A stretch of 64,000 bases of DNA from Rickettsiales bacterium. GTDB lineage: Bacteria > Pseudomonadota > Alphaproteobacteria > Rs-D84. The notes beneath the pieces are model-generated. The model worked only from the letters and a program-made list of their open reading frames with translations. It had not been told where the DNA came from and did not search any database. The translations under genes were made by a program, and so were the position numbers. This document shows, in pieces, positions 11,325-13,164 of this stretch (its first letter is position 1; every line of letters starts with the position of its first letter). The DNA lies in contig JAISCX010000035.1 of assembly GCA_031265235.1 (NCBI GenBank), positions 16,839-80,838 on the forward strand. Reading direction: 5' to 3'.

Positions 11325-11354
11325 TTGATTTCAACATCAGAAATATGTTATAAT
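11325..11354 (+). promoter_or_regulatory. sigma70-like promoter (TTGATT-18-TATAAT) upstream of SSR-containing locus
   Basis: ttgatt at 11325-11330 and tataat at 11349-11354. Confidence 0.4.
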
Positions 11355-11425
11355 TTATCCAAAGCAGCAGAGCGGAGCGGGGCAGAAAATGATATATTCT
11401 AACAAAATGCAATCGGAACGCGAAT

Positions 11426-11965
11426 TTGTTGGCGGAAAGCCACACACACACACACACACACACACACACACACACAGATAAACCGCTGCGCTGCTTGTTT
11501 GCATGCTTTGCCGTGCTTGTTTCAACCATAGTTTCACCGGCGTATTGCGAAATAGTTGCAAAATCATACGTCGACAGCGGCATAGAGACCCGCGAATCGC
11601 TTTCCAATAAAATAAAATCCACAGCAAGCGGCGGCCTGGGGCTGACAGACCAGGCAACCGACAATCAATATCCCAGCGCAAAGGCTGTCCATGACGGGCT
11701 GGCGGAAAAAGCCGCTGATGGCGATGTGGTAAAGCTGACCGGCGACCAAACCGTCGCGGGCATGAAAACTTTTTCCGCCGCCCCGGTCATTCCCGAAAAA
11801 TCCGGCGCTTTGCGCGCAGACGCCGCAACCGCTGTCGCCGCCACGGAAAAACAGGTCTATGATTCCATAGACAATGTCCCAAAATTCATAGAAAGCGCAA
11901 GCTTATCTGCCGCCCAGACATCGTCCGCCATCGATACTAAGAATTTTTACTATGTCTTAGAATGA
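11426..11965 (+). CDS. surface/fibre-like protein with phage-tail-fibre-repeat-like motif; 5' end contains (CA)18 tract (start codon uncertain)
   Basis: The ORF begins at TTG and upstream ATGs (11389, 11407) are in another frame. The (HT)n stretch is followed by the hydrophobic segment LFACFAVLVSTIVSPAYC. PSAKAVHDGL resembles the tail-fibre repeat A-[ST]-P-K-A-V. Confidence 0.45.
   Translation: MLAESHTHTHTHTHTHTDKPLRCLFACFAVLVSTIVSPAYCEIVAKSYVDSGIETRESLSNKIKSTASGGLGLTDQATDNQYPSAKAVHDGLAEKAADGDVVKLTGDQTVAGMKTFSAAPVIPEKSGALRADAATAVAATEKQVYDSIDNVPKFIESASLSAAQTSSAIDTKNFYYVLE
11441..11476. repeat. (CA)18 dinucleotide simple-sequence repeat
   Basis: Perfect cacaca... tract of 36 nt read directly from the sequence. 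It encodes (HT)n in the annotated frame. Confidence 0.97.
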
Positions 11966-12015
11966 TTGGGATTCCAGCCCAGGCCCGGAATGACACGGTA
12001 AGAAAGAAGGATATG

Positions 12016-13164
12016 TTTATGAAAAAACTATTGGCCGTCAGCTGTTTTCTATGGGCTTTGCCCGCATTGGCGGCGGACCCGGCTTTTACCAATCTATCGG
12101 TCAAAAATCGTATTCTGAATATCATTGGTTCTGATTTTCCTTATTCGCCGATTTCATCGTATGTTACAAGCGACCGCCTTTTGCATTTGGACGCTATTGA
12201 CAACACAGGCGCCGGCGATATGAATCATTCATATGCCACGACCACTTGGACCGATTTGTCCGGCAACGCCAACAATATTTCAGGTATGGTCGGAATCCTG
12301 AATTGGTCTGTGCAAAGTCTGAAAATCGGCGGCAGCGACGGGATTATTTACGCGCCGACAATCAAACTGCAACCGCAATACGACGATGGCAAAACTCTCA
12401 CAAAAATGACTTACGAGTATATTTTCAGTGGAAATTCGTATATCGCAAATGCAGGAATAAACAGTATTGACACCGACCCCTTTGACAAAAGCATCAACAA
12501 TTGTTTCTGGAAACAAACGTCCAATTCCGGCGGCAATATTACTTGGCAATGGACGGACAAGGGAAATATCCGCCGGGCAACCGTATCTATTCCGGATGAT
12601 GGAAAAATTCACGCGGTATCGGTAAGTCTTGATATGACGGTGCAGACCAACGGATTATTAAAGTTTTATGTAGACGGGGTCTATCAAACCAGCGCTTCCA
12701 CCAATAGCAACACCGGATATTCCAGCGGATTTACTTTGGGCAGAAGTTTCCAAGACGATTTTCCCGCCCCGAACGTAAAGCTGCACAGTGTCAGAATTTA
12801 TAATACAAATCTGACCGACGCCCAATTGATGAATAATTTTACAGTGGATTCTATACGGTTTCTGGCCCCGCCGGTAATAAAAATCGGAAATGCCGTTTGC
12901 GGCGAAGTTTCTGTTTTATCATCCGGCGCGATAAGTTGCATGGTGCCGGCATCCGTTGTGGCCGGCGAGTACGAGGTTACTTATACCGAAAACGGAACAG
13001 TGTTTACGGTCGGAAAATGCACTTATGACGGGCAGAATTGCATAGATGTGAATTTTAATTATAGCAACATTGCAAAGTCCGGAAAGCTGATGAAAGCAAT
13101 TTATCGTGGCGGCAGCAAAGTCAAGGCGGTGTTCAAAAACGGGGTCCAAATATTTTCTGAATAA
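12016..13164 (+). CDS. secreted LamG/concanavalin-A-like lectin domain protein
   Basis: Signal MFMKKLLAVSCFLWALPALA with an AAGAAGGA RBS. The block FTLGRSF...KLHSVRIYNTNLTDAQL is typical of LamG jelly-roll domains. Confidence 0.6.
   Translation, partial: FMKKLLAVSCFLWALPALAADPAFTNLSVKNRILNIIGSDFPYSPISSYVTSDRLLHLDAIDNTGAGDMNHSYATTTWTDLSGNANNISGMVGILNWSVQSLKIGGSDGIIYAPTIKLQPQYDDGKTLTKMTYEYIFSGNSYIANAGINSIDTDPFDKSINNCFWKQTSNSGGNITWQWTDKGNIRRATVSIPDDGKIHAVSVSLDMTVQTNGLLKFYVDGVYQTSASTNSNTGYSSGFTLGRSFQDDFPAPNVKLHSVRIYNTNLTDAQLMNNFTVDSIRFLAPPVIKIGNAVCGEVSVLSSGAISCMVPASVVAGEYEVTYTENGTVFTVGKCTYDGQNCIDVNFNYSNIAKSGKLMKAIYRGGSKVKAVFKNGVQIFSE

Follow-up and report, generated by a model that had tools for sequence, protein, structure and literature searches.

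How can a small exported protein be made from a gene whose conserved ATG start codons lie in the wrong reading frame? This question is raised by ORF1, an open reading frame (ORF) in a 64-kb stretch of DNA (the window, whose positions are used for all coordinates of ORF1 and of its downstream neighbour ORF2) from a short-read metagenome-assembled genome (MAG) that NCBI labels ‘Rickettsiales bacterium’. ORF1 (LBK26_04105) is annotated there as hypothetical and ORF2 as a LamG domain-containing protein. Eighteen CA units in perfect succession separate the ATGs of ORF1 from its predicted signal peptide, and we consider it probable that the locus is a simple-sequence-repeat (SSR) contingency locus, in which slipped-strand mispairing would cause translational phase variation and of which the assembled allele would be a non-ATG state. 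The slipped-strand contingency design is a known mechanism; what is new is the example, not the mechanism.

Three reading-frame states around a CA tract

The (CA)18 tract was found by Tandem Repeats Finder with 18.0 copies at 100% identity, in agreement with a regular-expression census. In that census no other dinucleotide array of the 64 kb exceeds six units, and homopolymers reach 8 nucleotides (nt) at most. The number of matches to (CA)7 with at most one mismatch expected from 100 dinucleotide-preserving shuffles is 0. The tract is longer than chance would give and than frequent slippage requires. It is free of stop codons in all frames, its unit is not a multiple of three, and it falls within a reading frame, after the start codon and ahead of the functional part of the protein (Table 1).

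Table 1. Coordinates of the features of the ORF1–ORF2 locus in the window (n, number of CA units; aa, amino acids).
Feature	Position	Strand	Basis or remark
Sigma-70-type promoter, TTGATT, 18-nt spacer, TG-TATAAT (extended −10)	11325–11354	+	Consensus scan, 10/12 with TG
Purine/G-rich Shine-Dalgarno-like stretch GGAGCGGGGCAG upstream of first ATG	11374–11385	+	Conserved in orthologue (L001); putative function
Two in-frame ATGs (11389–11391 and 11407–11409), encoding MIYSNKM	11389–11409	+	Both conserved in orthologue
Tandem TTG TTG	11426–11431	+	Sole starts in the long-ORF frame upstream of the signal peptide at n = 18
(CA)18 tract	11441–11476	+	His-Thr repeats in every frame
TAA closing the ATG frame at n = 18	11479–11481	+	Leaves a 30-aa leader peptide
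Signal peptide coding region	11477–11548	+	DKPLR n-region, CLFACFAVLVSTIVSPAYC h/c-region; predicted cleavage before EIVAKSYVD
Mature ORF1	11549–11965	+	About 140 aa, small, tail-fibre-like motifs; predicted secreted
ORF1 motifs: AKSYVDS; SNKIKS..GG.GLT..TDNQYPSAKAV; VKLTGDQTVAGMKTF	(second) 11666–11689; (third) 11723–11785	+	
ORF2 Shine-Dalgarno AAGAAGGA	12003–12010	+	Read from sequence; conserved in L001
ORF2, secreted LamG (Laminin_G_3) + IPT/TIG protein	12013–13164	+	ATG 12013 or 12019; predicted signal peptide
Conserved promoter–ORF1–ORF2 cassette	11316–13177	+	Homology block with L001 7910–9763, 89.6% nt identity

A preliminary description of this DNA had proposed a strong promoter upstream of the tract, and the site holds up: it is among the best-scoring ones in the region scanned, 29 of its 30 nt are identical in the orthologous locus of a sister genome (L001), and a paralogous locus (L003) carries the same ATGTTATAATTTAT −10 region. 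The frame common to ATGs 11389 and 11407 reads MIYSNKMQSEREFVGGKPHTHTHTHTHTHR and, as had been described, runs through the (CA)18 to end at the TAA. The long ORF extends from TTG 11426 to 11965 in the +1 frame relative to the ATGs. No Shine-Dalgarno sequence is evident before TTG 11426 or TTG 11429, and the orthologue has TTATCA there instead.

We rebuilt the locus in silico with 15 to 21 CA units and followed the frames. ATG 11389 joins the long ORF when n is 16, 19 or 22; when n is 15, 18 or 21, the tandem TTG alone shares its frame; and when n is 17 or 20, the signal peptide has no start codon upstream of it. This makes three states, not two. This simulation agrees with the earlier claims that gaining one CA unit or losing two joins the ATG to the long ORF and that 18 units leave a TTG start only. 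At n = 19 the predicted product, ...GGKP(HT)6DKPLRC..., would be colinear with that of the orthologue.

The CLFACFAVLVSTIVSPAYC segment of the signal peptide starts five codons past the CA tract, and the signal peptide was recognised from the sequence and by alignment to family members that bear one, with the cleavage site placed by analogy: the h-region and cleavage site of every member match those of the window, between CLFACFAVLVSTIVSPAYC and EIVAKSYVD. Since the signal peptide directly follows the tract, translation has to pass through the tract to give any exported ORF1. Internal GTG or TTG starts would yield a truncated signal with no n-region and have no Shine-Dalgarno sequence. A hydrophilic His-Thr extension is plausibly tolerable in a signal-peptide n-region. 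Both automated annotations call ORF1 from internal starts, at 150 aa (PGAP) and 156 aa (JGI), and such truncated calls imply that repeat-gated genes of MAGs are systematically mis-annotated.

We hypothesize the following mechanism. The promoter would drive an mRNA on which ATG 11389, or possibly 11407, opens a short hydrophilic leader; (CA)n would be read as (His-Thr)n, followed by the n-, h- and c-regions of a Sec signal peptide and by a mature fibre-like protein of about 140 aa. Slipped-strand mispairing during replication would change n by whole CA units. When n = 1 mod 3 (16, 19, 22), the ATG would be in frame and the exported protein would be made (ON). When n = 0 mod 3, as in the assembled 18, the TTGs lacking a Shine-Dalgarno sequence would alone be in frame (low or OFF) and the ATG would give the 30-aa peptide. 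When n = 2 mod 3, a start would be absent upstream of the signal peptide (OFF). We infer that the promoter and the ATG are used and that the repeat number varies in the population.

Structure in the leader mRNA does not stand out: its minimum free energy is no better than that of shuffles (z = 0.37), the CA tract is predicted to be unpaired, and Rfam gave no match at the tract. A candidate pairing between the Shine-Dalgarno region and the nucleotides that follow the tract was dropped, since the orthologue conserves it only in part.

The orthologue and the poly-C paralogues

Close relatives of ORF1 and ORF2 are scarce, with one each among 5.8 billion proteins; the two share a contig of a sister MAG, Rickettsiales bacterium Gx481_bin12 (LBJ73_01365/01370; loci L001, L002 and L103). 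In this orthologue (L001) the promoter, the 5′ untranslated region (UTR) and both ATGs are conserved, and the gene is in frame from the ATG, reading MIYSNKMQSRREFISEKLYTHHKHTDKPLRG...; it is called from the first ATG by NCBI (187 aa) and from the second by JGI (181 aa). At the site of the tract it carries TACACACACCACAAACACACA, a short, interrupted, CA-rich stretch of 21 nt (L001 8037–8057) encoding YTHHKHT, against a perfect 36 nt in the window. The orthologue stays in frame from the ATG through this homologous stretch, which shows the ATG to be the ancestral start and the region of the tract to be coding; the window tract, 13 nt longer in the alignment, brings about the frameshift.

Apart from the tract, the coding regions of ORF1 and ORF2 show no indel or stop relative to the orthologue at about 10% nucleotide divergence. 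Without the tract ORF1 is intact over 162 codons, with a ratio of nonsynonymous to synonymous divergence (dN/dS) of 0.43; ORF2 is 90% identical to its orthologue (P0006), with a dN/dS of 0.26. Judging from these substitution patterns, the cassette is under purifying selection.

The similarity ends abruptly, 9 nt upstream of the −35 hexamer (~11316) and 13 nt past the stop codon of ORF2 (~13177); beyond these edges there is either no similarity to L001 or 69–73% identity (gyrB 73%, UDG 69%). Synonymous divergence (dS) is 0.21 for both cassette genes and 1.2 and 1.9 for the flanking genes (gyrB and UDG). With a dS so far below that of its flanks, the cassette has a much more recent common ancestor than the surrounding genomes, which points to recent lateral exchange or recombination and would mark the cassette as a unit moving between lineages. 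Its ends showed no recognisable integrase, inverted repeat or att-like site. The 3′ end of tRNA-Met is partly repeated in direct orientation in the sister MAG (GTCGAAATCCCGTTGCCGCTATCA; L001 7604–7678 and 7834–7857); this copy, some 160 nt past the tRNA and some 50 nt before the cassette, could be a remnant attachment site.

A broader view comes from a scan of one genome per species, which gave 36 family loci (243 kb), all subjected to the repeat census. Five are from ‘Rickettsiales’ MAGs of the same termite-gut series and many from Margulisiibacteriota, the rest coming from gut Alphaproteobacteria, Methanobrevibacter, Bacteroidales and Clostridia. Only four C runs of at least 10 were found in the 243 kb; three of them belong to Rickettsiales paralogues, where they precede the family match by 33–86 nt (C11 in L003, C16 in L004 and C14 in L005). 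The 30 family loci from other phyla have no 5′-end poly-C tract of at least 10. It had been suggested that CA tracts be sought at paralogous loci; repeats do occur at the equivalent 5′ position, although they are of the poly-C and not of the CA type.

L003 (from Pcl387_bin15) is a complete counterpart of the window locus: downstream of a TGTTATAAT promoter, an ATG opens the leader MKNKFAHFT, which is followed by poly-C and by HKNKFLSIFCLFFLIIPFNSADA, with cleavage before DIAGKTYVDS. It reads MKNKFAHFT-(C)n-HKNKFLSIFCLFF... and would be in frame only at C10 or C13, while the assembly has C11. Its partner, an overlapping (ATGA) gene, encodes a secreted Laminin_G_3-like protein (27.0 bits, just under the cutoff of 27.6) with a weak colinear BLASTP match to ORF2 of the window (E = 0.014); translational coupling at this overlap would bring the partner under the switch as well. 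Because their 5′ region is duplicated between them, L004 and L005 are counted as one event. Their tract may be coding, the ATG frame of L004 being open with C15 or C18, or may instead immediately precede a GTG start. That two independent repeat types occupy one functional position within a single protein family is, on this comparison of loci, the signature expected of contingency loci. We know of no documented transcriptional slippage or programmed ribosomal frameshifting at CA dinucleotide tracts; as frame rescue in the poly-C paralogues, either is a minor possibility.

As a separate observation, L004 3780–4030 and L005 1–230 (sister MAG) combine a near-identical upstream region, poly-C and signal peptide with differing C-terminal domains, that of L005 being a phage tail-collar-like segment. 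This suggests that heads were shuffled onto a common repeat-bearing 5′ cassette.

Weighing the proposed switch against alternatives and known systems

The slipped-strand switch put forward in the preliminary description is supported by the frame of the orthologue, the position of the signal peptide and the tracts of the paralogues. Several points count against it. The assembled allele is not ATG-ON and could also be explained by a pseudogene or by an error in the repeat count. Metagenome contigs scanned for two exact patterns (a 21-mer upstream and a 24-mer downstream of the tract) gave no other strain for a CA count, nor did exact-protein look-ups of ORF2 (from both starts), P0001 and P0159 give another strain. 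The neighbouring lipoprotein gene led to a 912-nt Logan contig (SRR14710921, L104), the sole independent assembly of the locus, which is identical upstream, stops 25 nt into the tract and yields no CA count. A repeat tract is absent from L015, from the orthologue and from the distant members L099 to L102, and a repeat difference suspected between L099 and L100 from their differing downstream gene calls was rejected, the DNA being identical and tract-free. The poly-C of L004 and L005 may be 5′ UTR rather than coding. Finally, the genome is rich in other tandem arrays, and repeat expansion could be a neutral property of the lineage.

This last point leads to the alternative that survives best, though we regard it as unlikely: recent inactivation, in which a chance CA expansion in an array-prone genome would have made ORF1 a young pseudogene with no adaptive switching. 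It would agree with an assembled allele out of frame with the ATG, with an orthologue that works without a long repeat, and with the frequency of period-7 tandem arrays, some inside ORFs, which reaches 2.7 per 10 kb in this genome and 5.1 in the sister MAG against 0–0.5 in the other lineages sampled. Set against this, ORF1 is otherwise intact and has a dN/dS of 0.43, the tract is fully pure (100%), unlike the heptamer arrays, most of which are imperfect, and the different repeat type at the same position in paralogues of other MAGs argues for recurrent selection. Moreover, from general knowledge of repeat slippage, (CA)18 would revert often, and inactivation would hence be reversible in practice. 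Levinson and Gutman reportedly found in 1987 that long poly-CA/TG tracts frameshift very frequently in E. coli.

We give slightly less credence again to a miscounted repeat, with a true n of 19 (or 16) and ORF1 ON, the assembled count being an assembly or stutter artefact or an arbitrary allele of a mixed population. The genome is a short-read MAG, the k-mer assembly of another run breaks within the tract, and the C11 run of L003, of a kind well known to provoke errors, also leaves its frame exactly one base off. The 36 nt of the tract are, on the other side, well below the read length and the k of 119, so the consensus should mirror the majority of reads; two loci in two MAGs that are both out of frame are what mixed ON/OFF populations would give; and even with a wrong count the tract would be hypermutable and the layout of the switch would stay. 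A MAG consensus repeat count is one snapshot of a probably mixed population.

Very improbable, in our view, is a start of ORF1 at TTG 11426/11429 with the downstream CA tract as an unstructured initiation enhancer and the ATG frame as a leader ORF: at n = 18 the TTG is in frame, 12 nt upstream of a tract predicted to be unpaired, and CA multimers enhance translation in E. coli, downstream CA repeats acting on leadered and leaderless mRNAs, as stated in the part of PMC9031893 that cites Martin-Farmer & Janssen 1999; but the orthologue has no such TTGs and reads in frame from the ATG, a Shine-Dalgarno sequence precedes the ATG and none the TTG, 18 units are far above what an enhancer needs, the poly-C of the paralogues is left unexplained, and enhancement would be compatible with the switch, merely making the n = 0 mod 3 state leaky.

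The slipped-strand switch that we prefer has well-known counterparts. In Helicobacter pylori, oipA (hopH), hopZ, sabA, sabB and babB (CT repeats) have a dinucleotide repeat between the start codon and the end of the signal peptide; in oipA, repeats in the signal-peptide-coding 5′ region drive ON/OFF switching by slipped-strand frameshifts, and the frame is judged by the reading of the signal-peptide C-terminus (PMC10564699). Unlike in oipA, the unit here is CA and not CT, the tract is longer (18 units), and it would extend a hydrophilic n-region with His-Thr instead of encoding the hydrophobic core. The product differs as well: oipA encodes a beta-barrel outer-membrane protein, whereas ORF1 would be a small soluble protein with tail-fibre motifs in a termite-gut alphaproteobacterial MAG, for which switching is proposed from sequence.

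The opa genes of Neisseria carry CTCTT pentamers in the signal-peptide-coding region, and the paralogues are switched independently by repeat number. They share with ORF1 a coding repeat within the leader peptide of a surface protein family; they differ in that the pentamer encodes the hydrophobic core, that Opa proteins are beta-barrels and that there are many paralogues per genome, against one copy in the 64-kb window. In Haemophilus influenzae lic1A and lic2A, CAAT repeats with start codons in two frames produce three states (strong, weak and off). Starts in two frames upstream of the repeat are found here too, as in lic1A, with ATG versus TTG and a start-less third frame, although the lic unit is a tetranucleotide and the targets are cytoplasmic enzymes that modify lipopolysaccharide, not a secreted protein. 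The tracts of L003, L004 and L005 (C11–C16) are similar to the poly-C/poly-G tracts of Campylobacter, Bordetella and Neisseria, and L003 is frame-gated likewise; the possible 5′ UTR location sets L004 and L005 apart from those homopolymer loci.

To our knowledge, SSR phase variation is documented almost entirely in cultured host-adapted pathogens (Neisseria, Haemophilus, Helicobacter, Campylobacter, mycoplasmas). For Rickettsiales, a search of the literature on it yielded general repeat statistics and the Anaplasma aaap tandem repeats only, with no counterpart of the present locus. From the CA locus and the poly-C paralogues, it would seem that SSR phase variation extends to uncultured gut symbionts labelled Rickettsiales, acting there on a target family not previously described as phase-variable, namely small secreted proteins with tail-fibre motifs paired with LamG lectin-like proteins.

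Gene products and genomic surroundings

The hydrophobic signal segment and the PSAKAV tail-fibre-like motif reported earlier for ORF1 are both present, the latter as QYPSAKAV. Pfam adds a BppL_N match (PF18338; 27.1 bits against a cutoff of 25.8, 2.9e-6) that spans aa 100–120, a 21-residue motif only. ORF1 also matches tail-fibre families of PHROGs, viral contigs match its residues 70–160, and weak PDB matches (E about 0.1) are to TP901-1-type receptor-binding proteins (3d8m/4hem). An exhaustive HMMER search with ORF1 returned 1276 proteins, most of them long, multi-repeat and tail-fibre-like, sharing the ..VVKLTGDQTVAGxKTF.. (BppL_N) motif. A subset consists of small proteins of 100 to 270 aa with the overall plan of ORF1, including a signal peptide: (A)K(S/N)YVDS, then SNKVKSVAGGGxGLT...TDxQYPSAKAVYD, then LTGDQTVAGxKTF..IPxIPTAxLPS. 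Structure prediction for mature ORF1 gave a predicted local distance difference test (pLDDT) score of 54.2 from a 25-sequence alignment, too poor to use.

ORF1 thus shares its BppL_N motif with BppL of the lactococcal phage TP901-1, from which it differs in the lack of phage context, in its Sec signal peptide, in a mature length of about 140 aa and in belonging to a cellular family of small secreted proteins. A phage or prophage origin was rejected and ORF1 was not filed as a phage tail fibre, its gene context being non-phage; it is a predicted secreted or exported product.

ORF2 begins 50 nt past ORF1, and the earlier statement that a secreted LamG protein lies downstream is confirmed by its signal peptide and by Pfam matches to Laminin_G_3 (PF13385; 34.5 bits against a cutoff of 27.6, 2.8e-8) and TIG (22.9 bits against 20.9, 8.7e-5). 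Its AlphaFold model, from a 2-sequence alignment, has a pLDDT of 34.7, too poor to confirm the fold. The two genes had been described as a pair under one switch. This stands for ORF1, which is frame-gated; ORF2 has its own AAGAAGGA Shine-Dalgarno sequence, so the frameshift directly gates ORF1 only. ORF2 would be co-transcribed, translated from that ribosome-binding site and affected at most by polarity; Rho-dependent polarity from untranslated ORF1 mRNA onto ORF2 is possible. We infer from the secretion signals and domain types that the two proteins would form a surface or extracellular binding structure, to which an ‘adhesin’ role may be assigned.

More tentatively, and with somewhat less than even confidence, we hypothesize that the locus represents a repeat-gated, laterally exchanged two-gene module of uncultured termite-gut Alphaproteobacteria, with a tail-fibre-derived secreted stalk and a separate LamG lectin head, in which (CA)n or (C)n evolved between start codon and signal peptide. 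If true, this would be a domesticated, phase-variable, fibre-like adhesin system beyond the classical pathogens.

The window is ordinary chromosome, with gyrB, uvrB, aspS, mnmE and typA. The neighbours of the locus are an outer-membrane beta-barrel protein, a lipoprotein-like ORF, tRNA-Thr, aspS, gyrB and UDG, with no phage genes seen, and a tblastn search of the window gave no second paralogue of the family or of the LamG protein. The beta-barrel gene, 0.7 kb upstream (9881–10582, minus strand), has a match to the Pfam Opacity family (1.1e-12) and is without a repeat tract.

The period-7 arrays of this genome resemble the heptamer repeats known in cyanobacteria as short tandemly repeated repetitive (STRR) sequences. 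The window holds 17 of them, with 3–6 copies each, including those at 21349–21383, 21415–21437/21632–21677, 28457–28487/28547–28580, 31176–31213/31254–31294, 39149–39182, 39306–39335, 39574–39604, 39821–39851, 40839–40870, 44203–44234 and 53161–53196/53262–53282; others are found in L001 (9814–9875, 10092–10128), L004 (3443–3479, 4558–4590) and L015 (5561–5636). The unit sequence varies by site, and three pairs are exact inverted arrays, 30–200 nt apart, at gene boundaries. Five arrays (39149, 39306, 39574, 39821 and 40839) lie inside an AddB-like PD-(D/E)XK nuclease ORF (38430–41222, plus strand) whose frame stays open, recalling in-frame insertions of Rickettsia palindromic elements; there, (AAGAGGG)4.6 encodes KREEGRGKREE directly before the ..IDIKTG nuclease motif. 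An imperfect (TTTGCTC)4.9 (28533–28590, plus strand), with an inverted copy 60 nt upstream, specifies the hydrophobic core in the signal peptide of a lipoprotein (MRKYYLFFALCSLLFAAGC). As a 7-nt unit in a leader it would be frame-shifting in principle, like Neisseria opa, with just two adjacent units identical.

Downstream of the cassette, a T-box-leader-like element (13432–13626, plus strand) stands directly upstream of aspS (13629–15407). Its Rfam match (RF00230, 36.4 bits, E = 1e-6) is below the gathering score of 93, with a good T-box core (CAAGGUGGCACCGCG) and a terminal helix and with stem I almost entirely missing. Such a leader is unexpected in a MAG labelled Rickettsiales.

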